Below, one piece after another: positions 9,377-29,300 of a DNA stretch of 64,000 bases. This stretch comes from Squalus acanthias. Its lineage: Eukaryota. The translations under genes were made by a program, and so were the position numbers. Position 1 is the stretch's first letter, and every line of letters begins with the position of its first letter. The DNA lies in the NCBI GenBank assembly GCA_030390025.1, contig CM059431.1:117244001-117308000 (forward strand). The letters are read 5' to 3'. A model generated the notes under the pieces. That model did not search any database, was not told the DNA's origin, and saw nothing but the letters and a program-made list of their open reading frames with translations.

Positions 9377-10096
9377 ATGGGATTGAGAAAAGCAAGAAGT
9401 AAATCTTCCGACATGTCTTCCTTTTTCCTCAACCGAGGATTCCCCTCTACTGTGGTTGATACGGCCCTTGACCGTGCCCGTTCTATTTTCCGCACTTCTG
9501 CTCTCACCCCTTCCTCTCCCTCCCGGAACCACGATAGGGTTCCCCTTGTCCTCACCTTTCACCCCACCAGCCTCCACATTCAATGGATCATCCTCCGCCA
9601 TTTCCGCCACCTCCAGCGTGATCCCACCACCAAACACATCTTCCCCTCACCTCCCCTTTCAGCATTCCGAAGGGACCGCTCCCTCAGCGACACCCTGGTC
9701 CACTCCTCTATCACCCCCAATTCCCTTTCGCCCGGCACCTTCCCGTGTAAGCGCAGGAGATGCAACACATGCCCTTTTACCTCCTCCCTTCCCACTGTCC
9801 AGGGCCCCAAACACTCCTTCCAGGTGAAACAGCGATTTACTTGTACTTCTTGCAATTTAGTATACTGTATGCGCTGCTCACGATGCAGTCTCCTCTACTT
9901 TGGGGAGACCAAACGCAGATTGGGTGACCGCTTTGCGGAACACCTCCGTTCAGTCCGTAAGGGTGACCCCGAGCTTCCGGTCGCTTGTCACTTTAATTCT
10001 CCGCTCCACTCCCACTCAGACATCACTGTCCTCGGCCTCTTACACTGTTCCAATGAAGCTCAACGTAAGCTCAAGGAACAGCACCTCGTCTTTTGA
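9377..10096 (+). pseudogene. Penelope ORF C-terminal fragment (RT thumb/linker plus GIY-YIG endonuclease)
   Basis: 239-aa ORF with the GIY-YIG signature VY...YFGET.R.L..RF.EH; the RT core is missing. Confidence 0.8.
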
Positions 10097-10567: not shown

Positions 10568-11682
10568 TAAGAAGTACATCTGCTTTTTTTAAATACAGCT
10601 CCTGCTGGCTATGATAAGGAAATCTTGGATTCAGCATGCTTTCTGCAGTGAGACCTCTATAATTTATTCTCCCAGGTTCTAGCACTGTTTTTCATAGAGA
10701 TTTTTTCCCCCAATTTTGCTGTGGAAACTTAAACAGATAATTAGTTCTTGCACTTGTTTTATGTTAAGTCTGTTGAAAGGCCTCAATTATCTTGAACTAC
10801 AGGGGGATATAATCCTTACCACGGGGCCTAACCTTATTATTTCTCGGGAGCACTCTGTTAAATTTAAAACATGGGGAAACTGATGATGCATTTTTAAAGA
10901 AAAATATGATAGAGCTGTAATGCAGAGAAAGTATAAACACTGTCCATATAAGTAAAAGAGAACTGACATATTTATGTCAATATCATGATATCCAATAAAT
11001 TGCTGGAAATATATGACTACATCTAGAAAGAGAAATTATTTCTGTGGAAATCCTTTTATTAAAATTCAAGTAGAGACCCTTTGCTCGTCTGTTGAAGGGC
11101 CTCCAGACAAAGAATTTAAACTATTGTTTTGTTCTTTTTAGGTGTTGATGAACCTACATCCAGCTTTCACTGCTTTCATTTTAGATTTTCCAGTAATTTA
11201 CACATTATTTCTTTTTAACCCATGATGACACATTATTACATTTATATTACATCATTAGATATGCTCCATAATTTTCCTCGAAGAGTATTCCAATAAATAG
11301 GATTAAAAGAAACTCCCTTTATCAAAATTAGAGTTGGGCTTAAGCATAAAATATGCAGATATGAAGAGGAGGACAAAAAGAAATAAGTTCAGCCAAAGAT
11401 TGAAATGTGAGGTTCTTAACATGGCTTTGTATTGTAAGGGATTCTGACCCTGCGTGTCTCGCAGCCTGTGAGATTCACGCGGCTCTGTGCAGCCTGTATG
11501 TCAGTGCGGGTCTAGGCCTTGTTGCCTGTTCTGGTCTCCAGCCAGTCTGGGAACACTAGACACACCTGTGAGTGGTTCGAATCACTCTCCCTTACGGTTC
11601 TAGACACTGGACTTAGATGCGAGAGCAGTAATGGAGATGAAACTCATGTAGACTTGGTTTGAATGGTACGAAATGGAAAATC

Positions 11683-11688
11683 TTTATT
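11683..11688 (-). terminator. LTR polyadenylation signal AATAAA (also at +7757 and +15514)
   Basis: tttatt on the + strand; conserved at the equivalent position in related LTRs (39094-39099 and 41682-41687). Confidence 0.7.
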
Positions 11689-11892
11689 GCATGATACTTA
11701 AGATTATGAAATACATGTCATAAGCACAGATTAATGACAGTACAATCTTACAAACAGTTATATAGTCGATCTTAGGGAAACGAGGAACGAACGGCACAAA
11801 GTAAATAGGGGCACACATTACAAATATCCTTAATCCTTAAACCTCCCCTATCAATATCTATCCTAAAACTAGATTCGTAGGATTTCGAGACT

Positions 11893-11904
11893 CATGCTCA
11901 CCAC
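11893..11904 (-). promoter_or_regulatory. Putative major splice donor in the LTR R region (TG|GTGAGCAT)
   Basis: TGGTGAGCAT is retained in all three LTR lineages (also 38879-38888 and 41835-41844) despite divergent surroundings. Confidence 0.55.
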
Positions 11905-12277
11905 TCGTGATAACTCGGAGAAATTCCGAATAGCTGATCGGATGTTTTTCACCGCAGCACCCACGTGTCGGTCAGGAGATCTCCTGGTCCCACTTGTTTA
12001 CTTGCTTTTACTGCTCCGGCTAGCAGGCTGGAACGTCTGCTGTGATGAAGACCTGTGTTGGTTGGTTTAACAGGTACTCTTCGAGCACAGTTGTCGATAT
12101 CGTCGATACGATATGGCTTTCACATTCCAGTTACTTTGGGCACAGTCCAGTTATCATCGATGCAATATGTTTCGTTATAAGTTCGAAGAAGTCTTCCCAG
12201 CGAGGAAAACGTGGATAATCGACCTACAGGCGCGGTCGGGATTTACTGACCGTGGCGATGGATATGGTCTTCCTCTC

Positions 12278-12312
12278 TTCTCATCTCATCTCATCTCATC
12301 TCATCTCATCTC
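12278..12312 (+). repeat. (TCTCA)n pentanucleotide run inside the LTR
   Basis: tctcatctcatctcatctcatctcatctcatctc, same length in all three LTRs. Confidence 0.85.
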
Positions 12313-12508
12313 GGGCCTTTGGTTCCGCTGCCAGTTACCAACATAGGTCTTCGTTACGCGACACGAGGTAGATCCGAACGGATCAGAAAGTTCAACAGTC
12401 TTTTTCAAAGAGTCAACAGGCAAGCAGGAGCCCGACTACGAGTACACAGGAGCAGCCACGAGGTTACGAAATAAGAGCACAGGATAAGAGAAAGCTGGAC
12501 GGTTTGGA

Positions 12509-12521
12509 GCCTGCAATTATA
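12509..12521 (-). promoter_or_regulatory. Putative LTR TATA box (TATAATTGCAGGC); 5' LTR copy at about 28023-28035
   Basis: gcctgcaattata here versus gccttcaattata at about 42177-42189 in the diverged solo LTR; GC box/E2F-like ttttcccgccc just upstream. Confidence 0.55.
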
Positions 12522-13123
12522 GTGCAAAATCTTCCGTTTTCCCGCCCAACTATAATGTCCATTCTTTTGTTTAGGGTTTGGCGCTCAAAATGTCTTGTAT
12601 GGGTGATCTCCGTTCTTAATGGGTTTCGGGGCTACTCGTAAATGTCTGAGTACCTGTTAATATTTCTCCCATTGTTAAATCGGTCGGTGTTCTCCCTGGA
12701 GGGGTTTGGGGCTTCCAAGTGTCCTGTATAACTACCTGCTAACGGCTCTCTCATCGTAGAGTCGTTGGGATTTTACATATTAATGTCTTTTGGATGGGCC
12801 CTTGATTACTCGGTACAATGGCTTTCCTTTGTACCTGGGAGACCGATTTCAGTATCTATGTGTATACTGCAAACCCATAATGTCTCGTGTATTATCTTCA
12901 CTGTGCTGAATCTTAATCGATCTTGCACAAATGTTTATTGGAACGCCATCTTGTCTGCCTGTTGAAAAGTCTAGAATGTTCTGTCACGAGGTGCGGCGGC
13001 CATTTTACAGGCTGCTTGTGTCCACTTTAAACCTGCCAGCATTCTACTGAAATAAAAGCTGTTTGAACGAAACTCTGTGTTTTCTCCTTATTAATAAAAT
13101 CGCGATATATTGCGAATTCTACA

Positions 13124-13135
13124 GTCCCTCCTGTT
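13124..13135 (-). promoter_or_regulatory. Polypurine tract-like sequence (AACAGGAGGGAC) abutting the 3' LTR
   Basis: Purine-rich run immediately 5' of TGTAGAATT on the minus strand. Confidence 0.6.
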
Positions 13136-13574
13136 GATGCGAATAACTCCGCTTATCGTATCAAAAATCATAGTGGTGAGCAATATTATCTTGATTTCTC
13201 TCCGAATCCAGTAAATTAATCCCATAATTTTAACTTAGCTAGGGTCTCTGTGTCGTCCTCATTTCCCAAGAAAATTACATTTTATATCACCGTAGGCATT
13301 ATTTGCCCTTAAACTTACACCACTTGTTTTCCTTCCCGGCGTAACCAGGCCGATGCCTCTCGTATCACCTGTATATTCATCTTTTATTCAGGGAAAGGAG
13401 AAACAGAACCCAAAACCAAACAATCATTTTTAACTGTAACACCATCACCAAAATAAATCAACACCAACTCTTAAAACATGTCGAGTTCCCAACGTATTTA
13501 CAATCTCTGAAAATCTTATATGAGTACAGGCTTCCGCGGCGCACGCGGCGAGCGGGAGTGACGCCATTTTCCGA

Positions 13575-15926
13575 TTACACGGTGCTCTCATCGTGCACGC
13601 GCACGTAACGTTCTCGCCACTCTCCCGTGTTTTCATGCTTGGTGAGGCGTTTGTCTCTTTTACAATGTACAACCAATAGGTACACTACAATGAAAACTTG
13701 GCATACGACTAAAATGTGGGAGGCTATTCTGATCCATGAAGGTACTTCAATATTGGTGAACAGATTCCACCACGGTGGAACTACTATATCCAGAATGTCT
13801 GTTCCTATTTCGACAGTTTTCTGCTCTAATGTGTAAAAATGTTTCTGTGACACCGCGACGGCTTTCAAAAGCTTGGTGAGGTGTTCAGGGAGAGGGGGAA
13901 TGAGGTATCCAAAATGCGCGACGAATCGCTGCAAGTCGGTGAAATTCTCTTTTACTGTGAGATGAACAGTGGATGGTTCAGGGATTGGGATAATTCGCTG
14001 TTGTGCTACTTGAACTTCCGCCCTGGGTTTAAAACAGAAACTGCTGTCACTCACCGGACACCGGCTACGGTTTCCATGCTGGTAGTGTTGCGCTGCAGTG
14101 GTAACACAATATGTTCCACCCCCGATGTATGCTACCTGCGGAGGCACATGATCTTGTGCCATTGCCTCCATGGTGCAATTCATGGACTTGGCGCCAGCCG
14201 TTCTGAACCCGCACTGTGGTGTTAAAAAGGCATTCAAGTGCTGGGGGCACAGTATTATGTGTGCTCCCCTGCCACGACAACCAGAGAGATCTGTACCTGT
14301 CATCGTTTGCTCCCAGCGGATGACGTAAGGTGGAACCGCTGCATAACGAATGTGGGCTCCCCCCTGAATGACACCGATGTTCTCTACCCGATATACCGGG
14401 GCGGGCTTTGCTGTGTCGCCCAAAACCGGCATACGTAAAACTATACCCATGATGGTATGGTTTGATCGTCCGCAGTCCACGGGGACTGGGTAAGCTTCTG
14501 AAGCTAGCCTGAGCTGGCATGGACTTAATGCGTTCTGAAAAGGGTGGAGCGCCCGCAGGTGTTTGTTACTTATCCAGGACGGAACCAAACCTTGTTTTAA
14601 ATCCTCCAAATTACTGCGGCCCTCGCCCAGTAACCACGCCCCGTAAAGCACGCACACCTCGTTCTGCGCAGCTTGATCGGATGCATTCCGATCTTCCCTA
14701 ATCAGGGCATTTACCGTCTTTGCATGTTTCTCCAACTCTGCTACAATTTCCTTTAAATGGAGAGTCATGGCTTGGTCCTCGTGTAGACCCGACCCTACCA
14801 CTTTATTCTCATCTGTTAGAATGTCCTTTAATTGTGTCTTTAAACCATTAATCTGGGTCTGCAGCTCCACACTGTCTAGAGCGTTGACCACAGATGTACC
14901 TGTGTTAAAAGCAGTGAACGCATCGTTCACCAAACCCCTTCTTTGCCTCCCTACTTGATCCAAAACTTCCTGTGGTGCGGTGTACAAACTTGTTTTATCA
15001 ATTTCCGCGAAATCGAATTCGTAAAATTGTCTGAACATCTTGGTCAACAGGACCTGGTACAACTGTTCCGTCTTTTTGGGGCACCACTCTGGTAACCGCA
15101 CCTCAGTGAGATTTAAAATCACCGAGGCCACCGCGTAATGTACCCCCTGAAATAGTATCTGGTCTGTGGGGACCAGTACCAAACCATTCCCGGGTCCCTT
15201 ACTAGTTTTAGGGCACCCTTCTTCCTCAGCTAGAACCACCGGAATCGTGGGCGGGGCTTTGCGTGGGCGCGTAATGAGCTCAGTGGCATTTACTGGGATC
15301 GGGGAGAATGGGGCTCCGCACCCCCTGGTGCTCGCATCCCACCTCATCCCCTGTCCGTTATCCTGCCATTGATTAATAAAAAATATGGAGATGCCTTTGG
15401 GGCAAACGTACTTTGACCCCCACATACATACATAAATTCCCTCATCCGGTTCCCACCATTTGTCCCAACAGACTTTCACTTGTCCGTCTGTCCCCGTAAT
15501 TGTCCGATGGGTATTATTACCCAGTCGTTCCCACTCGACCGAAGAGTTCCTCATAGTTTTGCTCAGCTTTCGCAGCCACCACCATCGGCTCAATGGGACC
15601 TTCCCACTACAAGTCAAACAAATCCGTTTGCCGACGGTGACGCTGATCCTGGGTGCGATGATCCTTACTTTGGGGCACAGTAAAGAAGTCTCTTTGTAGG
15701 CAAACCCCGATGTGCTGGAATACTCCGTTGAGTTCGTTCCCAGCCATCCTGGCCACCTTCCCTTGTGAAAATAGGTGCTGGTCTCCTCTGCCTCCCGTCT
15801 TCCGGTCCCATCCACCGCGATGGGGGCCGTGTCCCCGGAACATCCAAACACCACGACATCCTTGGTGCGGCCTCGATAGGCCAATCCACATCCGATTGCC
15901 ACGAGCAATACTAGAATTCGTTCCAT
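13575..15926 (-). CDS. env: Envelope glycoprotein, copy 1 (783 aa from the likely ATG; open frame extends to 16109): signal peptide, Ig-like domain, furin site, class I F-like fusogen, TM
   Basis: Signal-like MERILVLLVAIGCGLA in strong Kozak context (AAGATGG); LTC...W...DEGIYVC; RQRR|GLVNDAFTAFNTG; heptad repeat; Cys-rich region; TM IASHILVVCQVFIVVYLLVVHC; several N-x-S/T sequons. Confidence 0.88.
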   Translation of the reverse strand: MERILVLLVAIGCGLAYRGRTKDVVVFGCSGDTAPIAVDGTGRREAEETSTYFHKGRWPGWLGTNSTEYSSTSGFAYKETSLLCPKVRIIAPRISVTVGKRICLTCSGKVPLSRWWWLRKLSKTMRNSSVEWERLGNNTHRTITGTDGQVKVCWDKWWEPDEGIYVCMWGSKYVCPKGISIFFINQWQDNGQGMRWDASTRGCGAPFSPIPVNATELITRPRKAPPTIPVVLAEEEGCPKTSKGPGNGLVLVPTDQILFQGVHYAVASVILNLTEVRLPEWCPKKTEQLYQVLLTKMFRQFYEFDFAEIDKTSLYTAPQEVLDQVGRQRRGLVNDAFTAFNTGTSVVNALDSVELQTQINGLKTQLKDILTDENKVVGSGLHEDQAMTLHLKEIVAELEKHAKTVNALIREDRNASDQAAQNEVCVLYGAWLLGEGRSNLEDLKQGLVPSWISNKHLRALHPFQNALSPCQLRLASEAYPVPVDCGRSNHTIMGIVLRMPVLGDTAKPAPVYRVENIGVIQGGAHIRYAAVPPYVIRWEQTMTGTDLSGCRGRGAHIILCPQHLNAFLTPQCGFRTAGAKSMNCTMEAMAQDHVPPQVAYIGGGTYCVTTAAQHYQHGNRSRCPVSDSSFCFKPRAEVQVAQQRIIPIPEPSTVHLTVKENFTDLQRFVAHFGYLIPPLPEHLTKLLKAVAVSQKHFYTLEQKTVEIGTDILDIVVPPWWNLFTNIEVPSWIRIASHILVVCQVFIVVYLLVVHCKRDKRLTKHENTGEWRERYVRVHDESTV

Positions 15927-15938
15927 CTTTCCTTGGTT

Positions 15939-15960
15939 CCTGTGATCAGATAGAATGAGG
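15939..15960 (-). promoter_or_regulatory. Candidate env splice acceptor
   Basis: Minus strand CTCATTCTATCTGATCACAG|GAACCAAGGAAAG-ATG; the acceptor lies 13 nt before the env ATG. Confidence 0.5.
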
Positions 15961-16212
15961 TAGCCAGCCTCGCAAGAGTCTCTGGCTTTTGTGAAGGGTG
16001 AGCGGGTCCCCTGACCTCGCCTCACGTAAACTTCAACGTTCGCTGAATAAACTTTCACTAAACCTATCTTTAAAACTCCCATCATTTTATCGTTTTCTGT
16101 TAAAAACACTACAAACTTAACCTTATTAAAGCTATAAACTTAACCTTGAAATATTAACTTAAAACTTATTACTACTTACTATACAGTGCCGCCCGTTCTC
16201 AGGGCGGCCCCT

Positions 16213-17373
16213 TTAAATTCTGAGAAGGCTGCTGCGAGCTCTTCCCGACGGTGGGAGGGCACTGACCCTTCCCTCTGATCTGCCGCAGCCTGTTACTGCG
16301 CTGACCCTTCCCTCTGATCTGCCGCAGCCTGTTACTGCTGCGATGTGGCCGGTCTGTACCTGGGTTATCTTAACCTTAAATTTTCGCCTTGGGACAGTCT
16401 GGGGACATGACCACATCCTCCTGGGCTGGGGTTCTCTACTTGACCTACGGGGAGTTGCTGTGGGCGGGGGTTCCGTGACGGACGGACCGGGTTCCGAGAC
16501 CTCCATCGGGATGACCTGGGGTTCCATCACAGTCGCCGGCTCCGCCTCCGCTGACTCCGCCTCCCTAACCTCGGGGCTGGCAGTTCGTGGCTCCGCCCTG
16601 CTCGGCCCAGCAGGCGGCCCTTCACTCGTGATCTCTGCCTCCCCTGAGGACTGGACGTTCAAAGCGGGCGGCCACATCTCTGGGAGCCACACCGGTACTC
16701 TCTGTGCTCCCATAGCGGCTGGCCCTGCCTCCTCTAGCTCCTCCCTCCTGTCTTCGGGACCTGCAGCTCGTGTGTCCACCCTGTGTGGATCTCTACCTGC
16801 AGCCCCCGTCCCCTCCATATCGTAAAAGGGACCGTTCCTCCGAAACCACCCGTCGTCATCACTATCCTCATCTGCACTATCCTCATCTGACCCGGGTACC
16901 CTGAATTCTTCCTCATCTAACCCCCAATTCCAGAAAAACGCTGCATGATCGTCCGGGATGTCCCTTCCTCTGATGCAAGCTGCTATGCCTGCCTGTGTGC
17001 CTTGTGGTCCTACCTGGGGCTGTGCTTTCCCACTGGCGGGATTTACCCCTGTGATTTTCCCTTGCGCACCTGGCTTGTACAGTTTGCACTGGTTTGCATC
17101 CTCATACTCCCGGCTTTTGGCTACCCTGTAGGCTGCTTTTATCTCACTAAGCTGCGCTTCTAGCCTGAGCACGTCTAACTTTCCCATTGCTCGGGCGTTC
17201 TCCTCCCGCAGGGCCTGCTCTCTAAGCTGCCCTTCCAGCCCATCTATTTTCCCTATTAAGCGGGCGTTCTCCTCCCGCAAGGCCTGCTCTTTTAACCTGG
17301 CCTCCTCACCGCAGACCCCCTCCTGTGCGTGTCTTTTAAAAGGACACAGGTAGGCAGGCTGCGTGGGCTCTAG
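16213..17373 (-). CDS. ORF2, copy 1: 386 codons in frame with gag after a single TGA; coiled-coil N-part, acidic tract, Pro/Glu-rich C-part; function unknown
   Basis: Manual translation 3' of the gag TGA gives LEPTQPAYLCPFKRHAQEGVCGEEARLKEQA, continuing without a stop into the 355-aa ORF of the track (which starts at TTG). Confidence 0.75.
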   Translation of the reverse strand, partial: LEPTQPAYLCPFKRHAQEGVCGEEARLKEQALREENARLIGKIDGLEGQLREQALREENARAMGKLDVLRLEAQLSEIKAAYRVAKSREYEDANQCKLYKPGAQGKITGVNPASGKAQPQVGPQGTQAGIAACIRGRDIPDDHAAFFWNWGLDEEEFRVPGSDEDSADEDSDDDGWFRRNGPFYDMEGTGAAGRDPHRVDTRAAGPEDRREELEEAGPAAMGAQRVPVWLPEMWPPALNVQSSGEAEITSEGPPAGPSRAEPRTASPEVREAESAEAEPATVMEPQVIPMEVSEPGPSVTEPPPTATPRRSSREPQPRRMWSCPQTVPRRKFKVKITQVQTGHIAAVTGCGRSEGRVSAVTGCGRSEGRVSALPPSGRARSSLLRI

Positions 17374-19185
17374 TCATTGGGTACTATTAGACGGTCCTGC
17401 GGCACCTACGGGGCCGGTTGCGACCGCCACCTGTCCACGCGCATTCAAGACCAGCTTGCGCATGGCTCCTAACACTGCTTCGAGGTCGTCGGGAGGGGTG
17501 GGTGCCTTGGCTTCCTTAGCCGGGACAGGCGCCTGGGCTCGGACCGCGGGATTTTTATCCTTGGAATCCTTCCAAGGGTTCCTGCAATGCTTGCGCCAGT
17601 GCCCTGTCTTCCCACACCCGTAACAAGCATTACTTGCCTGTGGGGCGCGATTACCCTCTTGATGCCACTCTCTTTGATACGGGGCTGCGGGTCGTACCTC
17701 ATGTACTCTTCCCTTAAGGGGACGTGTTGCCATACCCCTTATATTGCGATAACCTAACGTGAGTCGATTCAAGATCGACTCTTCCGTAATGTTGGGGTCA
17801 TTGGGATCAAACCATGCTTTTGCCTGCTCTCTGACGGCTGGTAAACTGTTGGCTATTATGCACCTAAGCCAATGAGTTAAAGCTAAACCTTCCACATCTT
17901 CGCGCTCGGGCGCACCTAGACAGCTGCGCTCATATACTGGCCACAGCCTGTCGGCAAAAACCTTCGGGGGTTCTCCCTCCATCTGCACTGTCTGTCCCAC
18001 TCTAGCAAACGGACCTTCGTCGTTCGCCCCCAACACTTCCAGGACCTCATTCTTTAATTCCTCATAACTCTTGGTTCCCCTCTTGCTCTCGCCTGAGAGA
18101 CACTGAAGGACCGAGCTGTCTAATGAGAACAGCAGCATTTTTGCTGTCTCCCCATCATCGCAGCCGTTAATGGCTGCGGCTTGCTCAACTTCTCTGAAAT
18201 GTACGGAAGGGTCGTCTGCCTCGGTCAGCTTCCGTACGTGATTTATCATAGCTCTCAGCTGATGTGAACTGTGAGGCAACACCAGCTGTCCGAGGAGATC
18301 CCCCGGTTCTTCCCCACCGTTTCTGCTTGGGCCCCTTTTAATACCCGTTACTGGATATAACGATCCCTTTCCTACTTCTTTTTCAATGGGCTCTTTTGTT
18401 TCTTCCATTGCTTCCTCCCTAACCCAGGTTTCTGAATAGCTGGGTGGCACGGAGGGCGCAGTGACTACTACTCCTTCTGCTTTACTTGGTGGGGATTTTC
18501 TAAATCTCTCATTTACTAGCGGCTGGTGTGCCGACGGATTGATAAGGCACACCATGCCGTTCGCATTGTTCATGGCCTTTTTGAGGTGCTCTATCTCCCT
18601 TTGGCAGGCGCTATGATCGGCTCCCTGAAACTTATCCTCAAGGGCCAACTTATATGCCGCCCTAACCCCCGTCAAGCTCTCTTCTTGAGTTCTTATCTGG
18701 GCAGCTTGGCGGTTACATCTTTCCTTTAACCTGCTCTCATTCAATTTTGCCTCAGTGACCTGGCACTCGAGATAATCTATCCTTGTTTTAAGGTGACTGG
18801 AGACTTCCTGGCTTTCTTGGTGTAACTCATTTAAATTCTTAATGAGCACCTCCCCTCCAGAAACCTTCTCCTCCATTTCTCCCTCTAAATGACTGATTCG
18901 AGCTACTAGCGCTGTAATGGTCTGGTTGGAAATCTGAACCTGCCTTTTGTAACACATAAGCCAGACTGCTTTCTCAAGTGTCTTTTTATGTTCTTTACTA
19001 TCTGTCCACCTTTCAGCTGCCTCTAGCGGGCTTTTATCCGCTAACAATTCACTTATCCATTTCTTAGTTAGATTAACCTTTCCAAACACATAATCCGCTA
19101 TCTTTTCCTGCATAACATTTCGTACAGTCATTCCAAAATCTAACACACTACCCTCTCGCTGCCAGTGTCCTGCCGCGGTCGCCAT
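17374..19185 (-). CDS. gag: Gag polyprotein, copy 1 (603 aa)
   Basis: Coiled-coil N-part, PPSY late-domain motif, capsid-like region with MHR-like QMEGEPPKVFADRL, CCHC knuckle CYGCGKTGHWRKHC. Confidence 0.92.
   Translation of the reverse strand: MATAAGHWQREGSVLDFGMTVRNVMQEKIADYVFGKVNLTKKWISELLADKSPLEAAERWTDSKEHKKTLEKAVWLMCYKRQVQISNQTITALVARISHLEGEMEEKVSGGEVLIKNLNELHQESQEVSSHLKTRIDYLECQVTEAKLNESRLKERCNRQAAQIRTQEESLTGVRAAYKLALEDKFQGADHSACQREIEHLKKAMNNANGMVCLINPSAHQPLVNERFRKSPPSKAEGVVVTAPSVPPSYSETWVREEAMEETKEPIEKEVGKGSLYPVTGIKRGPSRNGGEEPGDLLGQLVLPHSSHQLRAMINHVRKLTEADDPSVHFREVEQAAAINGCDDGETAKMLLFSLDSSVLQCLSGESKRGTKSYEELKNEVLEVLGANDEGPFARVGQTVQMEGEPPKVFADRLWPVYERSCLGAPEREDVEGLALTHWLRCIIANSLPAVREQAKAWFDPNDPNITEESILNRLTLGYRNIRGMATRPLKGRVHEVRPAAPYQREWHQEGNRAPQASNACYGCGKTGHWRKHCRNPWKDSKDKNPAVRAQAPVPAKEAKAPTPPDDLEAVLGAMRKLVLNARGQVAVATGPVGAAGPSNSTQ
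19167..19184 (-). promoter_or_regulatory. Primer binding site, tRNA-Arg(TCG)-type
   Basis: TGGCGACCGCGGCAGGAC, 5 nt from the LTR end; complementary to the vertebrate tRNA-Arg(TCG) 3' end GTCCTGCCGCGGTCG-CCA as I recall it. Confidence 0.85.
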
Positions 19186-19189
19186 TTTC

Positions 19190-20880
19190 TGTAAGGGATT
19201 CTGACCCTGCGTGTCTCGCAGCCTGTGAGATTCACGCGGCTCTGTGCAGCCTGTATGTCAGTGCGGGTCTAGGCCTTGTTGCCTGTTCTGGTCTCCAGCC
19301 AGTCTGGGAACACTAGACACACCTGTGAGTGGTTCGAATCACTCTCCCTTACGGTTCTAGACACTGGACTTAGATGCGAGAGCAGTAATGGAGATGAAAC
19401 TCATGTAGACTTGGTTTGAATGGTACGAAATGGAAAATCTTTATTGCATGATACTTAAGATTATGAAATACATGTCATAAGCACAGATTAATGACAGTAC
19501 AATCTTACAAACAGTTATATAGTCGATCTTAGGGAAACGAGGAACGAACGGCACAAAGTAAATAGGGGCACACATTACAAATATCCTTAATCCTTAAACC
19601 TCCCCTATCAATATCTATCCTAAAACTAGATTCGTAGGATTTCGAGACTCATGCTCACCACTCGTGATAACTCGGAGAAATTCCGAATAGCTGATCGGAT
19701 GTTTTTCACCGCAGCACCCACGTGTCGGTCAGGAGATCTCCTGGTCCCACTTGTTTACTTGCTTTTACTGCTCCGGCTAGCAGGCTGGAACGTCTGCTGT
19801 GATGAAGACCTGTGTTGGTTGGTTTAACAGGTACTCTTCGAGCACAGTTGTCGATATCGTCGATACGATATGGCTTTCACATTCCAGTTACTTTGGGCAC
19901 AGTCCAGTTATCATCGATGCAATATGTTTCGTTATAAGTTCGAAGAAGTCTTCCCAGCGAGGAAAACGTGGATAATCGACCTACAGGCGCGGTCGGGATT
20001 TACTGACCGTGGCGATGGATATGGTCTTCCTCTCTTCTCATCTCATCTCATCTCATCTCATCTCATCTCGGGCCTTTGGTTCCGCTGCCAGTTACCAACA
20101 TAGGTCTTCGTTACGCGACACGAGGTAGATCCGAACGGATCAGAAAGTTCAACAGTCTTTTTCAAAGAGTCAACAGGCAAGCAGGAGCCCGACTACGAGT
20201 ACACAGGAGCAGCCACGAGGTTACGAAATAAGAGCACAGGATAAGAGAAAGCTGGACGGTTTGGAGCCTGCAATTATAGTGCAAAATCTTCCGTTTTCCC
20301 GCCCAACTATAATGTCCATTCTTTTGTTTAGGGTTTGGCGCTCAAAATGTCTTGTATGGGTGATCTCCGTTCTTAATGGGTTTCGGGGCTACTCGTAAAT
20401 GTCTGAGTACCTGTTAATATTTCTCCCATTGTTAAATCGGTCGGTGTTCTCCCTGGAGGGGTTTGGGGCTTCCAAGTGTCCTGTATAACTACCTGCTAAC
20501 GGCTCTCTCATCGTAGAGTCGTTGGGATTTTACATATTAATGTCTTTTGGATGGGCCCTTGATTACTCGGTACAATGGCTTTCCTTTGTACCTGGGAGAC
20601 CGATTTCAGTATCTATGTGTATACTGCAAACCCATAATGTCTCGTGTATTATCTTCACTGTGCTGAATCTTAATCGATCTTGCACAAATGTTTATTGGAA
20701 CGCCATCTTGTCTGCCTGTTGAAAAGTCTAGAATGTTCTGTCACGAGGTGCGGCGGCCATTTTACAGGCTGCTTGTGTCCACTTTAAACCTGCCAGCATT
20801 CTACTGAAATAAAAGCTGTTTGAACGAAACTCTGTGTTTTCTCCTTATTAATAAAATCGCGATATATTGCGAATTCTACA
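19190..20880 (-). repeat. LTR 2 (shared middle LTR), 1691 bp
   Basis: No difference from LTR 1 seen by eye; PBS on one side, PPT on the other. Confidence 0.95.
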
Positions 20881-20892
20881 GTCCCTCCTGTT
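20881..20892 (-). promoter_or_regulatory. Polypurine tract-like sequence, copy 2
   Basis: Same as 13124-13135. Confidence 0.6.
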
Positions 20893-21331
20893 GATGCGAA
20901 TAACTCCGCTTATCGTATCAAAAATCATAGTGGTGAGCAATATTATCTTGATTTCTCTCCGAATCCAGTAAATTAATCCCATAATTTTAACTTAGCTAGG
21001 GTCTCTGTGTCGTCCTCATTTCCCAAGAAAATTACATTTTATATCACCGTAGGCATTATTTGCCCTTAAACTTACACCACTTGTTTTCCTTCCCGGCGTA
21101 ACCAGGCCGATGCCTCTCGTATCACCTGTATATTCATCTTTTATTCAGGGAAAGGAGAAACAGAACCCAAAACCAAACAATCATTTTTAACTGTAACACC
21201 ATCACCAAAATAAATCAACACCAACTCTTAAAACATGTCGAGTTCCCAACGTATTTACAATCTCTGAAAATCTTATATGAGTACAGGCTTCCGCGGCGCA
21301 CGCGGCGAGCGGGAGTGACGCCATTTTCCGA

Positions 21332-23683
21332 TTACACGGTGCTCTCATCGTGCACGCGCACGTAACGTTCTCGCCACTCTCCCGTGTTTTCATGCTTGGT
21401 GAGGCGTTTGTCTCTTTTACAATGTACAACCAATAGGTACACTACAATGAAAACTTGGCATACGACTAAAATGTGGGAGGCTATTCTGATCCATGAAGGT
21501 ACTTCAATATTGGTGAACAGATTCCACCACGGTGGAACTACTATATCCAGAATGTCTGTTCCTATTTCGACAGTTTTCTGCTCTAATGTGTAAAAATGTT
21601 TCTGTGACACCGCGACGGCTTTCAAAAGCTTGGTGAGGTGTTCAGGGAGAGGGGGAATGAGGTATCCAAAATGCGCGACGAATCGCTGCAAGTCGGTGAA
21701 ATTCTCTTTTACTGTGAGATGAACAGTGGATGGTTCAGGGATTGGGATAATTCGCTGTTGTGCTACTTGAACTTCCGCCCTGGGTTTAAAACAGAAACTG
21801 CTGTCACTCACCGGACACCGGCTACGGTTTCCATGCTGGTAGTGTTGCGCTGCAGTGGTAACACAATATGTTCCACCCCCGATGTATGCTACCTGCGGAG
21901 GCACATGATCTTGTGCCATTGCCTCCATGGTGCAATTCATGGACTTGGCGCCAGCCGTTCTGAACCCGCACTGTGGTGTTAAAAAGGCATTCAAGTGCTG
22001 GGGGCACAGTATTATGTGTGCTCCCCTGCCACGACAACCAGAGAGATCTGTACCTGTCATCGTTTGCTCCCAGCGGATGACGTAAGGTGGAACCGCTGCA
22101 TAACGAATGTGGGCTCCCCCCTGAATGACACCGATGTTCTCTACCCGATATACCGGGGCGGGCTTTGCTGTGTCGCCCAAAACCGGCATACGTAAAACTA
22201 TACCCATGATGGTATGGTTTGATCGTCCGCAGTCCACGGGGACTGGGTAAGCTTCTGAAGCTAGCCTGAGCTGGCATGGACTTAATGCGTTCTGAAAAGG
22301 GTGGAGCGCCCGCAGGTGTTTGTTACTTATCCAGGACGGAACCAAACCTTGTTTTAAATCCTCCAAATTACTGCGGCCCTCGCCCAGTAACCACGCCCCG
22401 TAAAGCACGCACACCTCGTTCTGCGCAGCTTGATCGGATGCATTCCGATCTTCCCTAATCAGGGCATTTACCGTCTTTGCATGTTTCTCCAACTCTGCTA
22501 CAATTTCCTTTAAATGGAGAGTCATGGCTTGGTCCTCGTGTAGACCCGACCCTACCACTTTATTCTCATCTGTTAGAATGTCCTTTAATTGTGTCTTTAA
22601 ACCATTAATCTGGGTCTGCAGCTCCACACTGTCTAGAGCGTTGACCACAGATGTACCTGTGTTAAAAGCAGTGAACGCATCGTTCACCAAACCCCTTCTT
22701 TGCCTCCCTACTTGATCCAAAACTTCCTGTGGTGCGGTGTACAAACTTGTTTTATCAATTTCCGCGAAATCGAATTCGTAAAATTGTCTGAACATCTTGG
22801 TCAACAGGACCTGGTACAACTGTTCCGTCTTTTTGGGGCACCACTCTGGTAACCGCACCTCAGTGAGATTTAAAATCACCGAGGCCACCGCGTAATGTAC
22901 CCCCTGAAATAGTATCTGGTCTGTGGGGACCAGTACCAAACCATTCCCGGGTCCCTTACTAGTTTTAGGGCACCCTTCTTCCTCAGCTAGAACCACCGGA
23001 ATCGTGGGCGGGGCTTTGCGTGGGCGCGTAATGAGCTCAGTGGCATTTACTGGGATCGGGGAGAATGGGGCTCCGCACCCCCTGGTGCTCGCATCCCACC
23101 TCATCCCCTGTCCGTTATCCTGCCATTGATTAATAAAAAATATGGAGATGCCTTTGGGGCAAACGTACTTTGACCCCCACATACATACATAAATTCCCTC
23201 ATCCGGTTCCCACCATTTGTCCCAACAGACTTTCACTTGTCCGTCTGTCCCCGTAATTGTCCGATGGGTATTATTACCCAGTCGTTCCCACTCGACCGAA
23301 GAGTTCCTCATAGTTTTGCTCAGCTTTCGCAGCCACCACCATCGGCTCAATGGGACCTTCCCACTACAAGTCAAACAAATCCGTTTGCCGACGGTGACGC
23401 TGATCCTGGGTGCGATGATCCTTACTTTGGGGCACAGTAAAGAAGTCTCTTTGTAGGCAAACCCCGATGTGCTGGAATACTCCGTTGAGTTCGTTCCCAG
23501 CCATCCTGGCCACCTTCCCTTGTGAAAATAGGTGCTGGTCTCCTCTGCCTCCCGTCTTCCGGTCCCATCCACCGCGATGGGGGCCGTGTCCCCGGAACAT
23601 CCAAACACCACGACATCCTTGGTGCGGCCTCGATAGGCCAATCCACATCCGATTGCCACGAGCAATACTAGAATTCGTTCCAT
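21332..23683 (-). CDS. env: Envelope glycoprotein, copy 2
   Basis: Translation identical to copy 1. Confidence 0.88.
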   Translation of the reverse strand: MERILVLLVAIGCGLAYRGRTKDVVVFGCSGDTAPIAVDGTGRREAEETSTYFHKGRWPGWLGTNSTEYSSTSGFAYKETSLLCPKVRIIAPRISVTVGKRICLTCSGKVPLSRWWWLRKLSKTMRNSSVEWERLGNNTHRTITGTDGQVKVCWDKWWEPDEGIYVCMWGSKYVCPKGISIFFINQWQDNGQGMRWDASTRGCGAPFSPIPVNATELITRPRKAPPTIPVVLAEEEGCPKTSKGPGNGLVLVPTDQILFQGVHYAVASVILNLTEVRLPEWCPKKTEQLYQVLLTKMFRQFYEFDFAEIDKTSLYTAPQEVLDQVGRQRRGLVNDAFTAFNTGTSVVNALDSVELQTQINGLKTQLKDILTDENKVVGSGLHEDQAMTLHLKEIVAELEKHAKTVNALIREDRNASDQAAQNEVCVLYGAWLLGEGRSNLEDLKQGLVPSWISNKHLRALHPFQNALSPCQLRLASEAYPVPVDCGRSNHTIMGIVLRMPVLGDTAKPAPVYRVENIGVIQGGAHIRYAAVPPYVIRWEQTMTGTDLSGCRGRGAHIILCPQHLNAFLTPQCGFRTAGAKSMNCTMEAMAQDHVPPQVAYIGGGTYCVTTAAQHYQHGNRSRCPVSDSSFCFKPRAEVQVAQQRIIPIPEPSTVHLTVKENFTDLQRFVAHFGYLIPPLPEHLTKLLKAVAVSQKHFYTLEQKTVEIGTDILDIVVPPWWNLFTNIEVPSWIRIASHILVVCQVFIVVYLLVVHCKRDKRLTKHENTGEWRERYVRVHDESTV

Positions 23684-23969
23684 CTTTCCTTGGTTCCTGT
23701 GATCAGATAGAATGAGGTAGCCAGCCTCGCAAGAGTCTCTGGCTTTTGTGAAGGGTGAGCGGGTCCCCTGACCTCGCCTCACGTAAACTTCAACGTTCGC
23801 TGAATAAACTTTCACTAAACCTATCTTTAAAACTCCCATCATTTTATCGTTTTCTGTTAAAAACACTACAAACTTAACCTTATTAAAGCTATAAACTTAA
23901 CCTTGAAATATTAACTTAAAACTTATTACTACTTACTATACAGTGCCGCCCGTTCTCAGGGCGGCCCCT

Positions 23970-25130
23970 TTAAATTCTGAGAAGGCTGCTGCGAGCTCTT
24001 CCCGACGGTGGGAGGGCACTGACCCTTCCCTCTGATCTGCCGCAGCCTGTTACTGCGCTGACCCTTCCCTCTGATCTGCCGCAGCCTGTTACTGCTGCGA
24101 TGTGGCCGGTCTGTACCTGGGTTATCTTAACCTTAAATTTTCGCCTTGGGACAGTCTGGGGACATGACCACATCCTCCTGGGCTGGGGTTCTCTACTTGA
24201 CCTACGGGGAGTTGCTGTGGGCGGGGGTTCCGTGACGGACGGACCGGGTTCCGAGACCTCCATCGGGATGACCTGGGGTTCCATCACAGTCGCCGGCTCC
24301 GCCTCCGCTGACTCCGCCTCCCTAACCTCGGGGCTGGCAGTTCGTGGCTCCGCCCTGCTCGGCCCAGCAGGCGGCCCTTCACTCGTGATCTCTGCCTCCC
24401 CTGAGGACTGGACGTTCAAAGCGGGCGGCCACATCTCTGGGAGCCACACCGGTACTCTCTGTGCTCCCATAGCGGCTGGCCCTGCCTCCTCTAGCTCCTC
24501 CCTCCTGTCTTCGGGACCTGCAGCTCGTGTGTCCACCCTGTGTGGATCTCTACCTGCAGCCCCCGTCCCCTCCATATCGTAAAAGGGACCGTTCCTCCGA
24601 AACCACCCGTCGTCATCACTATCCTCATCTGCACTATCCTCATCTGACCCGGGTACCCTGAATTCTTCCTCATCTAACCCCCAATTCCAGAAAAACGCTG
24701 CATGATCGTCCGGGATGTCCCTTCCTCTGATGCAAGCTGCTATGCCTGCCTGTGTGCCTTGTGGTCCTACCTGGGGCTGTGCTTTCCCACTGGCGGGATT
24801 TACCCCTGTGATTTTCCCTTGCGCACCTGGCTTGTACAGTTTGCACTGGTTTGCATCCTCATACTCCCGGCTTTTGGCTACCCTGTAGGCTGCTTTTATC
24901 TCACTAAGCTGCGCTTCTAGCCTGAGCACGTCTAACTTTCCCATTGCTCGGGCGTTCTCCTCCCGCAGGGCCTGCTCTCTAAGCTGCCCTTCCAGCCCAT
25001 CTATTTTCCCTATTAAGCGGGCGTTCTCCTCCCGCAAGGCCTGCTCTTTTAACCTGGCCTCCTCACCGCAGACCCCCTCCTGTGCGTGTCTTTTAAAAGG
25101 ACACAGGTAGGCAGGCTGCGTGGGCTCTAG
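23970..25130 (-). CDS. ORF2 (gag-readthrough extension), copy 2
   Basis: Identical to copy 1; TGA-CTAG junction at 25127-25133. Confidence 0.75.
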   Translation of the reverse strand, partial: LEPTQPAYLCPFKRHAQEGVCGEEARLKEQALREENARLIGKIDGLEGQLREQALREENARAMGKLDVLRLEAQLSEIKAAYRVAKSREYEDANQCKLYKPGAQGKITGVNPASGKAQPQVGPQGTQAGIAACIRGRDIPDDHAAFFWNWGLDEEEFRVPGSDEDSADEDSDDDGWFRRNGPFYDMEGTGAAGRDPHRVDTRAAGPEDRREELEEAGPAAMGAQRVPVWLPEMWPPALNVQSSGEAEITSEGPPAGPSRAEPRTASPEVREAESAEAEPATVMEPQVIPMEVSEPGPSVTEPPPTATPRRSSREPQPRRMWSCPQTVPRRKFKVKITQVQTGHIAAVTGCGRSEGRVSAVTGCGRSEGRVSALPPSGRARSSLLRI

Positions 25131-26942
25131 TCATTGGGTACTATTAGACGGTCCTGCGGCACCTACGGGGCCGGTTGCGACCGCCACCTGTCCACGCGCA
25201 TTCAAGACCAGCTTGCGCATGGCTCCTAACACTGCTTCGAGGTCGTCGGGAGGGGTGGGTGCCTTGGCTTCCTTAGCCGGGACAGGCGCCTGGGCTCGGA
25301 CCGCGGGATTTTTATCCTTGGAATCCTTCCAAGGGTTCCTGCAATGCTTGCGCCAGTGCCCTGTCTTCCCACACCCGTAACAAGCATTACTTGCCTGTGG
25401 GGCGCGATTACCCTCTTGATGCCACTCTCTTTGATACGGGGCTGCGGGTCGTACCTCATGTACTCTTCCCTTAAGGGGACGTGTTGCCATACCCCTTATA
25501 TTGCGATAACCTAACGTGAGTCGATTCAAGATCGACTCTTCCGTAATGTTGGGGTCATTGGGATCAAACCATGCTTTTGCCTGCTCTCTGACGGCTGGTA
25601 AACTGTTGGCTATTATGCACCTAAGCCAATGAGTTAAAGCTAAACCTTCCACATCTTCGCGCTCGGGCGCACCTAGACAGCTGCGCTCATATACTGGCCA
25701 CAGCCTGTCGGCAAAAACCTTCGGGGGTTCTCCCTCCATCTGCACTGTCTGTCCCACTCTAGCAAACGGACCTTCGTCGTTCGCCCCCAACACTTCCAGG
25801 ACCTCATTCTTTAATTCCTCATAACTCTTGGTTCCCCTCTTGCTCTCGCCTGAGAGACACTGAAGGACCGAGCTGTCTAATGAGAACAGCAGCATTTTTG
25901 CTGTCTCCCCATCATCGCAGCCGTTAATGGCTGCGGCTTGCTCAACTTCTCTGAAATGTACGGAAGGGTCGTCTGCCTCGGTCAGCTTCCGTACGTGATT
26001 TATCATAGCTCTCAGCTGATGTGAACTGTGAGGCAACACCAGCTGTCCGAGGAGATCCCCCGGTTCTTCCCCACCGTTTCTGCTTGGGCCCCTTTTAATA
26101 CCCGTTACTGGATATAACGATCCCTTTCCTACTTCTTTTTCAATGGGCTCTTTTGTTTCTTCCATTGCTTCCTCCCTAACCCAGGTTTCTGAATAGCTGG
26201 GTGGCACGGAGGGCGCAGTGACTACTACTCCTTCTGCTTTACTTGGTGGGGATTTTCTAAATCTCTCATTTACTAGCGGCTGGTGTGCCGACGGATTGAT
26301 AAGGCACACCATGCCGTTCGCATTGTTCATGGCCTTTTTGAGGTGCTCTATCTCCCTTTGGCAGGCGCTATGATCGGCTCCCTGAAACTTATCCTCAAGG
26401 GCCAACTTATATGCCGCCCTAACCCCCGTCAAGCTCTCTTCTTGAGTTCTTATCTGGGCAGCTTGGCGGTTACATCTTTCCTTTAACCTGCTCTCATTCA
26501 ATTTTGCCTCAGTGACCTGGCACTCGAGATAATCTATCCTTGTTTTAAGGTGACTGGAGACTTCCTGGCTTTCTTGGTGTAACTCATTTAAATTCTTAAT
26601 GAGCACCTCCCCTCCAGAAACCTTCTCCTCCATTTCTCCCTCTAAATGACTGATTCGAGCTACTAGCGCTGTAATGGTCTGGTTGGAAATCTGAACCTGC
26701 CTTTTGTAACACATAAGCCAGACTGCTTTCTCAAGTGTCTTTTTATGTTCTTTACTATCTGTCCACCTTTCAGCTGCCTCTAGCGGGCTTTTATCCGCTA
26801 ACAATTCACTTATCCATTTCTTAGTTAGATTAACCTTTCCAAACACATAATCCGCTATCTTTTCCTGCATAACATTTCGTACAGTCATTCCAAAATCTAA
26901 CACACTACCCTCTCGCTGCCAGTGTCCTGCCGCGGTCGCCAT
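25131..26942 (-). CDS. gag: Gag polyprotein, copy 2
   Basis: Translation identical to copy 1. Confidence 0.92.
   Translation of the reverse strand: MATAAGHWQREGSVLDFGMTVRNVMQEKIADYVFGKVNLTKKWISELLADKSPLEAAERWTDSKEHKKTLEKAVWLMCYKRQVQISNQTITALVARISHLEGEMEEKVSGGEVLIKNLNELHQESQEVSSHLKTRIDYLECQVTEAKLNESRLKERCNRQAAQIRTQEESLTGVRAAYKLALEDKFQGADHSACQREIEHLKKAMNNANGMVCLINPSAHQPLVNERFRKSPPSKAEGVVVTAPSVPPSYSETWVREEAMEETKEPIEKEVGKGSLYPVTGIKRGPSRNGGEEPGDLLGQLVLPHSSHQLRAMINHVRKLTEADDPSVHFREVEQAAAINGCDDGETAKMLLFSLDSSVLQCLSGESKRGTKSYEELKNEVLEVLGANDEGPFARVGQTVQMEGEPPKVFADRLWPVYERSCLGAPEREDVEGLALTHWLRCIIANSLPAVREQAKAWFDPNDPNITEESILNRLTLGYRNIRGMATRPLKGRVHEVRPAAPYQREWHQEGNRAPQASNACYGCGKTGHWRKHCRNPWKDSKDKNPAVRAQAPVPAKEAKAPTPPDDLEAVLGAMRKLVLNARGQVAVATGPVGAAGPSNSTQ
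26924..26941 (-). promoter_or_regulatory. Primer binding site, copy 2
   Basis: gtcctgccgcggtcgcca on the + strand. Confidence 0.85.
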
Positions 26943-26946
26943 TTTC

Positions 26947-28637
26947 TGTAAGGGATTCTGACCCTGCGTGTCTCGCAGCCTGTGAGATTCACGCGGCTCT
27001 GTGCAGCCTGTATGTCAGTGCGGGTCTAGGCCTTGTTGCCTGTTCTGGTCTCCAGCCAGTCTGGGAACACTAGACACACCTGTGAGTGGTTCGAATCACT
27101 CTCCCTTACGGTTCTAGACACTGGACTTAGATGCGAGAGCAGTAATGGAGATGAAACTCATGTAGACTTGGTTTGAATGGTACGAAATGGAAAATCTTTA
27201 TTGCATGATACTTAAGATTATGAAATACATGTCATAAGCACAGATTAATGACAGTACAATCTTACAAACAGTTATATAGTCGATCTTAGGGAAACGAGGA
27301 ACGAACGGCACAAAGTAAATAGGGGCACACATTACAAATATCCTTAATCCTTAAACCTCCCCTATCAATATCTATCCTAAAACTAGATTCGTAGGATTTC
27401 GAGACTCATGCTCACCACTCGTGATAACTCGGAGAAATTCCGAATAGCTGATCGGATGTTTTTCACCGCAGCACCCACGTGTCGGTCAGGAGATCTCCTG
27501 GTCCCACTTGTTTACTTGCTTTTACTGCTCCGGCTAGCAGGCTGGAACGTCTGCTGTGATGAAGACCTGTGTTGGTTGGTTTAACAGGTACTCTTCGAGC
27601 ACAGTTGTCGATATCGTCGATACGATATGGCTTTCACATTCCAGTTACTTTGGGCACAGTCCAGTTATCATCGATGCAATATGTTTCGTTATAAGTTCGA
27701 AGAAGTCTTCCCAGCGAGGAAAACGTGGATAATCGACCTACAGGCGCGGTCGGGATTTACTGACCGTGGCGATGGATATGGTCTTCCTCTCTTCTCATCT
27801 CATCTCATCTCATCTCATCTCATCTCGGGCCTTTGGTTCCGCTGCCAGTTACCAACATAGGTCTTCGTTACGCGACACGAGGTAGATCCGAACGGATCAG
27901 AAAGTTCAACAGTCTTTTTCAAAGAGTCAACAGGCAAGCAGGAGCCCGACTACGAGTACACAGGAGCAGCCACGAGGTTACGAAATAAGAGCACAGGATA
28001 AGAGAAAGCTGGACGGTTTGGAGCCTGCAATTATAGTGCAAAATCTTCCGTTTTCCCGCCCAACTATAATGTCCATTCTTTTGTTTAGGGTTTGGCGCTC
28101 AAAATGTCTTGTATGGGTGATCTCCGTTCTTAATGGGTTTCGGGGCTACTCGTAAATGTCTGAGTACCTGTTAATATTTCTCCCATTGTTAAATCGGTCG
28201 GTGTTCTCCCTGGAGGGGTTTGGGGCTTCCAAGTGTCCTGTATAACTACCTGCTAACGGCTCTCTCATCGTAGAGTCGTTGGGATTTTACATATTAATGT
28301 CTTTTGGATGGGCCCTTGATTACTCGGTACAATGGCTTTCCTTTGTACCTGGGAGACCGATTTCAGTATCTATGTGTATACTGCAAACCCATAATGTCTC
28401 GTGTATTATCTTCACTGTGCTGAATCTTAATCGATCTTGCACAAATGTTTATTGGAACGCCATCTTGTCTGCCTGTTGAAAAGTCTAGAATGTTCTGTCA
28501 CAAGGTGCGGCGGCCATTTTACAGGCTGCTTGTGTCCACTTTAAACCTGCCAGCATTCTACTGAAATAAAAGCTGCTTGAACGAAACTCTGTGTTTTCTC
28601 CTTATTAATAAAATCGCGATATATTGCGAATTCTACA
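26947..28637 (-). repeat. LTR 3 (5' LTR of the array), 1691 bp
   Basis: Same termini; differs from LTR 1 and LTR 2 at 28502 (A vs G) and 28576 (C vs T). Confidence 0.95.
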
Positions 28638-28924
28638 TATATTTATATTAAAGAGTAACTAAACCTAGCACTAAGTTTTACTAAAATGTTACTCAAGCTA
28701 TTTTCCATTGTTTACTCTTCTAAAACAAGAAAGACAACAAATATTGCACCTTTTTAAAGTAATAAAATGTTCCAAAGCACTTCACAGAGGTAAAAACGGA
28801 TACTGAGCAGTGCTGTGAGAGAAACTTTCGGAGTTCTGACTGAAGGTATGTTCAAAGGGATAGAATTGAGAAGGCTTTTGATGAGAAGAGAGGTAGCAAG
28901 GGTTAAGACTTTGGGGGTCTGATG

Positions 28925-29300
28925 TTACAGTTTTTGGCCTAGAAATGGTCTGTGCAGCACCTGGTTTTCAGGTGCTACTTGTACTACACACATCCAGCTA
29001 GAAGTGGGCCACCAGCAATATTGGATAAGGACAAAATATAGGTGTCTTTTACCCACACCTGAAGCAGGTGTTAGACCCTTTGCATATGCGAATAAAGGGC
29101 CTAATACCTGTCTGAGGTCCCCTCTCCAAGATTGGTTTGCCCTGAAGCAGACAAAAGCAGCGTTGGCTGCACTCGGGGAAACCAATCCTAGGGATCGCCT
29201 GCTAGGCCCAATCGAGAAGATAAGTAACTTGCCTGAATGTAGAGCCAGGAGGAACAGGAGTGATCCTCTCAAACCTAGGTTAAATGAACAGATTGCCCAC
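28925..29300 (+). repeat. Unclassified interspersed repeat; related copy at about 38040-38280
   Basis: Shared blocks ttgcatatgc...cctctccaagattggtttgccctgaag versus cctctgcaatattggtttgccttgagg. Confidence 0.5.

Follow-up and report, generated by a model that had tools for sequence, protein, structure and literature searches.

Envelope (Env) proteins resembling the fusion (F) protein of paramyxoviruses have been published for lokiretroviruses (PMC7947760), invertebrate gypsy elements (10.1101/2023.10.26.564294) and foamy viruses (PMC11468914). The Env of epsilonretroviruses has been set aside as unclassified (PMC9967133, 10.1101/2021.11.05.467493), and the former, a review, presents the walleye Env as an anomaly of recent date, only a "distinct Env" without gamma-type features. 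Wang and Han (PMC9040795) prefer independent origins for the Env of canonical retroviruses and lokiretroviruses, with no detectable similarity between them. In cartilaginous fish, an endogenous retrovirus (ERV) lineage related to snakehead retrovirus (SnRV) is known from the elephant shark (PMC4422223, PMC4977317). Here we analyse a stretch of 64,000 nucleotides (nt) from the shark Squalus acanthias (the window; assembly GCA_030390025.1, contig CM059431.1, positions 117,244,001 to 117,308,000 of the forward strand), whose minus strand carries a doubled provirus. The element is probably a young, pol-less ERV near SnRV, with an intact env gene for a predicted F-type fusogen that bears a probable immunoglobulin (Ig) head. 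No description of this shark Env family, or of an F-like Env in SnRV or the walleye viruses, was found in the literature, of which few subscription journals were covered, and the available text of PMC12583693, PMC13709493 and PMC11089739 mentions neither. A retrovirus with an F-like Env is already published; the interest here lies in the link to the SnRV and walleye Envs and in the probable Ig head.

The structural model leaves us highly confident that the Env has the paramyxovirus-F-type (class Ib) fold. The fold search returned 240 matches in PDB at E<=0.001, and paramyxovirus or pneumovirus F accounts for 39/39 among the matches listed. An earlier note, made from the letters of this DNA alone, had proposed an F-type architecture and this same structural comparison; the PDB matches listed point to F throughout and not to orthoretroviral surface or transmembrane subunits. 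The alignment covers Env residues 238-717, crossing the cleavage site, and the comparison recovers the F-type core of domains I-III. The order of elements is that of class Ib: cleavage site, fusion peptide, first and second heptad repeats (HRA and HRB) and transmembrane (TM) anchor, with the N-terminal subunit forming part of the core. In the model, residues 319-374 and 383-444 form long helices, 477-645 a Cys region rich in beta structure and 680-714 the second heptad helix; a TM helix is also present. Plain sequence searches gave no significant match: Pfam returned no F family for the single Env (PF00523 was not obtained), phmmer against PDB gave nothing below E 1.8, and the Env family profile reaches measles F0 at E 0.19 only. 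In the fold search of BFVD, rank 3 (E 2.5e-13) went to a glycoprotein from a fish filovirus (Wenling thamnaconus septentrionalis filovirus), although PMC11468914 places filovirus glycoproteins in class Ia.

Baculovirus F is also among the BFVD fold matches, and the top ESM Atlas clusters near Env carry Gypsy and Baculo_F families, while those near Gag carry Ty3-type capsid families. Such neighbours are what an env-bearing, errantivirus-like Ty3/gypsy element with an F-type envelope would show, and F-type env genes are widespread in invertebrate gypsy elements (10.1101/2023.10.26.564294). However, in the same study no homologue of those elements was found intact in vertebrates, the named sequence relatives of the shark Env are all from vertebrates, and the RNase H piece associated with the family is retroviral in type; we regard a Ty3/gypsy origin as very unlikely.

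At the sequence level the env frame is open from 13575 to 16139, stop to stop. The likely start is the Met at 15926, because a signal peptide comes next, a splice-acceptor-like site lies 13 nt upstream and the gene models of relatives start at the same Met. The corresponding splice joint is not among the joints listed from the read runs, none of which is recorded as RNA. The earlier note had given the module as 13575..15200: its motifs lie where it placed them, on the minus strand, but the reading frame begins upstream and 15200 is approximately the start of the F core. An intact gene was confirmed, as were the RQRR furin site (residues 327-330), the post-cleavage subunit, estimated at about 450 amino acids (aa) and measured at 453, and the long heptad repeat, Cys-rich beta region and TM anchor. 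Directly after RQRR comes GLVNDAFTAFNTGTSVVNA; the proposed fusion-peptide-like stretch is therefore in place, but it is only mildly hydrophobic (mean Kyte-Doolittle value 0.68 over 20 aa). The reported absence of the gamma-type immunosuppressive domain (ISD) and of CX6CC also holds, as Env contains neither LQNR nor CX6CC. It does not have the short TM subunit with ISD and CX6CC that marks gamma-type (class Ia) Env.

In front of the F core, the N-terminus probably holds an Ig head, a fold that is predicted. This head likely binds the host cell and is the likeliest receptor-binding part, since F scaffolds take up modules of this kind either N-terminally or between their subunits (PMC11468914). 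The sequence CLTC at residues 103-106 was considered as a gamma-type CXXC isomerase motif and rejected: its first Cys is the B-strand Cys of the predicted Ig fold, and distant members do not retain the motif. The N-terminus of SnRV Env (record L001, 6191-6520 (+)) bears a weak resemblance to a V-set domain (Pfam E 0.16), and its score with the family head profile is reached by 3/500 shuffles; an Ig head may not be unique to the shark Env family.

The Env family was compared with 194 peptides from 40 retrovirus records. Among these, the SnRV reference (L001) was named by the match of its reverse transcriptase (RT) to the SnRV row of the PMC7947760 supplement, and L004 is walleye dermal sarcoma virus (WDSV). 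The family profile scores 21.8 bits with WDSV Env, up to 18.9 with foamy Envs and 18.2 with SnRV Env, and detects no gamma Env among the 194 peptides (best 1.8 bits). Profile-profile alignment (HHalign) gives 94% (E 1e-7, 292 columns) against SnRV Env, 96% (E 3.7e-9) against WDSV Env and 5% against gamma Env. Walleye epsilonretrovirus Envs, among them that of walleye epidermal hyperplasia virus 1 (WEHV1), also match the Env model in Foldseek against BFVD (E 4e-11 and 2e-7). The contrast with orthoretroviruses, in the form drawn in the earlier note, is not supported, as homology to the Envs of SnRV and the walleye epsilonretroviruses can be detected; it is gamma/beta-type (class Ia) Env that forms the real contrast. 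Because snakehead and walleye fish retroviruses have the same envelope type, F-like Env likely has a wider distribution among retroviruses than most accounts give it.

Within this assemblage we favour, with somewhat less assurance, membership of an SnRV-like lineage. Gene models in the whale shark join a relative of env to pol pieces, and the RNase H piece of these relatives scores 90 with SnRV, the next best among the 40 references reaching 63. Several results limit the assignment. The Env homology is not exclusive to SnRV, as WDSV scores equally well; the RT pieces of the whale-shark relatives single out no lineage, and their integrase-region piece prefers a foamy locus; a capsid-only profile misses SnRV Gag; and in an Env tree of 14 rows, which left out fragments and near-duplicates among the 50 matches, SnRV and WDSV sit on long branches without resolved placement. 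A fish foamy-like ERV is very improbable. The shark Env has neither the receptor-binding insert of about 330 aa between the subunits nor a leader-peptide TM, and its 93-aa N-subunit core runs straight into the furin site. HHalign against foamy Env reaches just 43% over 137 columns, and the four foamy rows form their own branch in the Env tree. The element also has a CCHC knuckle and an in-frame gag stop, whereas foamy Gag is not known to carry a Cys-His box.

A non-autonomous lokiretrovirus, comparable to zebrafish BHIKHARI but with env kept, would have no precedent in cartilaginous fish. Loki Env is F-like, with a signal peptide, an RXKR site of the type also present here, a fusion peptide, a coiled coil and a TM (PMC7947760); by eye, Loki-Bsp Env has the GP..G.VL start and the G..P and G.IL..P...Y....VG motifs in common with the shark protein, and Loki and BHIKHARI Gag share the N-terminal coiled coil. 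We nevertheless consider this origin unlikely. Loki RT was found in 0/6 chondrichthyan genomes, the whale shark among them (PMC7947760), and four Loki RT rows read GAKIS..K.QW where the whale-shark relatives read GFKVNPKKAQ, by eye nearer the SnRV and gamma rows. The F core of Loki-Bsp Env starts directly behind the signal peptide, without an Ig head, and BHIKHARI Gag has a glycine-rich patch, the Gag of the shark element a CCHC knuckle. A search of 300 of the 318 pages of the Loki supplement, in which line breaks may hide matches, gave no occurrence of motifs from the Xenopus and coelacanth relatives.

The Env family is spread over sharks, a skate, frogs and coelacanth. Env has 50 relatives at E<=0.001 among 1.84 billion representative proteins; the sources of 22 were looked up, of which 15 are sharks or skate, three frogs and one coelacanth. 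The elasmobranch relatives occur in Rhinoraja, Pristiophorus, Rhincodon, Heterodontus, Mustelus, Chiloscyllium and Scyliorhinus. The closest are skate and sawshark proteins (73-76% identity), and most relatives in other species are broken fragments. Viral and metagenome contigs contained no relatives of Env or of Gag. The words of the element are present at half or more in 20/24 listed sequencing runs (eight studies, five organism labels), and in the four runs examined reads fall in all 30 bins of the element with many variants, the depth not being a copy number. Among the best 40 of 683 variable places, 16 lie in env, of which 12 are third codon positions (p 0.0008); the corresponding figures are 4/8 for gag and 2/4 for ORF2, the second open reading frame (ORF) of the element. 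In the frog Mantella there are 16 near-identical members of a distant family Env (P0049 cluster), most of them full length, which suggests a recent burst there too. Pieces of family Env are also spliced into annotated shark host gene models (P0002, P0009, P0010 and P0041; cadherin-like, Niban, ZFP2-like and fbxo15), and may be annotation chimeras or exonisation.

The earlier note had raised possible host co-option. A host-co-opted, syncytin-like env would agree with the intact reading frame, the third-position bias, the identity to skate and sawshark proteins and the presence of family fragments inside host gene models. A single old orthologous locus in a decayed provirus is not what we found: the provirus is complete, with full, near-identical LTRs (long terminal repeats; two differences in 1691 nt), intact gag and undepleted CpG, and it belongs to a multi-copy, variable family. 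Relatives elsewhere are mostly fragmentary, and the identity across species fits infectious spread as well as conservation. Co-option of this locus is very improbable.

The doubled provirus occupies 11433-28637 with a period of 7757 nt, in the order LTR-gag-ORF2-env-LTR-gag-ORF2-env-LTR (Table 1). Pol is absent between gag and env in both units, where ORF2 takes its position. The two internal units (6066 nt each) are 100% identical, as are two of the three LTRs. The positions of the TATA-like box and the AATAAA in the middle LTR would imply a long U3. CpG is not depleted (observed/expected ratio 0.79 in env against 0.35-0.37 in the flanks), which argues for a young insertion. At both diagnostic sites, which lie close to the end of U3, the middle LTR agrees with the 3' LTR, the pattern expected of unequal crossover between LTRs, by which the doubling likely arose. 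It is possible, if doubtful, that the doubling is an assembly artefact, a question that concerns the tandem only and not Env: the perfect identity of the internal units would fit, and the doubled region is not spannable by contigs. The LTR pattern speaks for crossover, though a false duplication could mimic it. Elsewhere in the window, older related LTR pieces (77-80% identical) lie at 38581-39256 on the opposite strand, a fragment of a Penelope-type GIY-YIG endonuclease (Pfam E 0.005) at 9377-10096 (+), and a GC-rich tandem array of 30-bp units at 29220-30900, beginning about 600 nt from the 5' LTR.

Table 1. Features of the doubled provirus and of its second env copy (the gene under study), in window coordinates.
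Feature	Position	Strand	Remarks
5' LTR	26947..28637	-	1691 nt, TG...CA ends; 2 nt differ from the other two LTRs, both near the 5' (U3) end
Primer-binding site (PBS)	26924..26941	-	18 nt, overlaps gag start codon
gag copy 1	25131..26942	-	603 aa, identical to copy 2
ORF2 copy 1	23970..25130	-	in frame behind gag stop
env copy 1	21332..23683	-	100% identical to copy 2
Shared middle LTR	19190..20880	-	TATA-like box near 19521, AATAAA near 19445
gag copy 2	17374..19185	-	N-terminal coiled coil, capsid domain, one CCHC knuckle
ORF2 copy 2	16213..17373	-	386 codons, pol position, behind TGA-CTAG stop
Splice-acceptor-like site	15940..15962	-	pyrimidine tract and CAG, 13 nt 5' of env Met; use putative
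env copy 2 (gene under study)	13575..15926	-	783 aa
Probable Ig V-type head	15396..15674	-	residues ~85-177; Cys103, Trp, DEGIYVC
F2-equivalent part of F core	14937..15215	-	residues ~238-330, ends in furin site; F matches begin at residue 238-245
Furin-type site RQRR	14937..14948	-	from sequence
Predicted fusion peptide	14877..14936	-	from sequence; position kept in relatives
First heptad-repeat helices (HRA-equivalent)	14592..14876	-	from model
Second heptad helix (HRB-equivalent)	13785..13889	-	from model
Transmembrane anchor	13665..13727	-	residues ~734-754
Short purine tract, polypurine-tract-like, 5' of 3' LTR	13124..13133	-	from sequence
3' LTR	11433..13123	-	identical to middle LTR
Possible target-site duplication	11428..11432	+	5 bp, TGTAT against TATAT in the right flank (28638-28642), one mismatch

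Gag combines a coiled coil, a capsid-like region and one CCHC, and zf-CCHC domains were detected in relatives. The fold search with Gag gave no match at E<=0.001; the best for the capsid region is the capsid of murine leukaemia virus (E 2.7e-3), a weak match from a poor model. The gag ATG and the beginning of the PBS overlap (19167-19185 and 26924-26942, both minus strand), so that the PBS encodes the Gag start MATAAGH; the skate protein P0003 begins MATTKGH. As there is no leader between PBS and gag, the packaging signal must sit in R-U5 or in gag. The PBS is one that we take to be likely tRNA-Arg, and a motif search of the literature gave no match for it.

The gag stop (17374-17376, minus strand) has the context TGA-CTAG, with ORF2 in frame behind it. 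UGA-CUAG is a known leaky stop context, and this together with the parallel in SnRV makes readthrough into ORF2 plausible, while a stimulating hairpin 3' of the stop was unsupported (z -1.14). Pfam identified no enzyme domain in ORF2. Its first 120 or so aa resemble the coiled coil of the element's own Gag, with a score that 0/500 shuffles reach, also when blocks of seven residues are shuffled; the figures are 0/500 and 1/500 against protein P0004, 37/500 against skate Gag and 52/500 for the SnRV control. By its sequence the ORF2 start has the look of a piece of the Gag coiled coil that was duplicated. The remainder, acidic and rich in proline, contains short internal repeats (16259-16338 and 17143-17303). 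As to ORF2 being a pol remnant, it showed no similarity to pol in a comparison made with that of SnRV and not with the family's own (62/200 and 283/300 shuffles score equally high), and longer Gag-Pol forms number 0 among 7693 candidates, which is weak evidence.

The intact reading frame and the third-position bias among family variants argue that Env is probably still fusogenic. A spliced env mRNA would give a precursor with a signal peptide, which would trimerize and be cut by furin at RQRR; the F2-like piece would be retained and interlaced with the head, in front of which the Ig domain would sit. Once triggered, HRA would extend, the fusion peptide would insert and HRB would pack back to form a six-helix bundle. 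The element, its own Gag and Env kept, would spread with the help of RT and integrase from pol-bearing relatives, complementation in trans being a known route for copying (PMC10435555). That env is kept under apparent constraint suggests that copying in trans runs through particles that reinfect cells.

The shark family forms a sequence bridge: SnRV, WDSV and foamy Env are within reach of its profile, and paramyxovirus F is within reach of its model. An RT tree onto which Env types are mapped can thus put the origin of retroviral Env to the test. Tentatively, the F-like fusogen could be the ancestral retroviral envelope, surviving in the foamy, loki, SnRV, walleye and shark-frog-coelacanth lines, each with a receptor module of its own (in the shark family an Ig domain of host type, acquired by capture), with gamma/beta-type Env as a later replacement and the shark family perhaps still spreading by infection across elasmobranchs. 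With its gene intact and its probable Ig head compact, the shark Env would also be a tractable model for how a minimal F scaffold gains a receptor-binding module.

Compared with known systems, the shark Env is like paramyxovirus and pneumovirus F (PDB 1ZTM, 3MAW, 3RKI and 7SEM) in its predicted three-domain core, in the internal cleavage with a short F2-like piece and in HRA and HRB, at 7-17% identity. Paramyxovirus and pneumovirus F depend on a separate attachment protein, whereas the shark Env carries a probable built-in Ig head. SnRV has in common with the element a homologous Env core, a long post-cleavage part (509 aa in SnRV), a Gag with coiled coil and one CCHC, an in-frame stop after gag and a PBS starting TGGCG. 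It differs in its full pol, a much longer N-terminal part of Env (cleavage at residue 625 of the open frame) and 3' accessory ORFs; the shark element has ORF2 in place of pol, a TGA instead of a TAG stop and a gag ATG overlapping the PBS. The walleye epsilonretrovirus Envs (WDSV, record L004 5962-9651 (+), and WEHV1) share the homologous F-like core, but have a longer N-terminal part, a long tail and a class I backbone. Lokiretrovirus Env hits PF00523 (E 2.2e-7, PMC7947760), which the shark Env does not, and the latter has about 230 extra N-terminal residues with the predicted Ig-like fold. The non-autonomous ERVs BHIKHARI and ENS-1 are likewise pol-less LTR elements with a coiled-coil Gag (10.1101/2024.03.25.586437); according to the same source Bik-2 lacks both pol and env and Bik-1 consists of one long ORF (gag), whereas the shark element retains a second ORF as well as env. 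Foamy virus Env (PDB 8RM0/8RM1; PMC11468914) is also a class Ib core on a retrovirus, but its receptor-binding domain sits between the subunits, while the extra module of the shark Env is N-terminal, as described for the coronavirus spike (PMC11468914).
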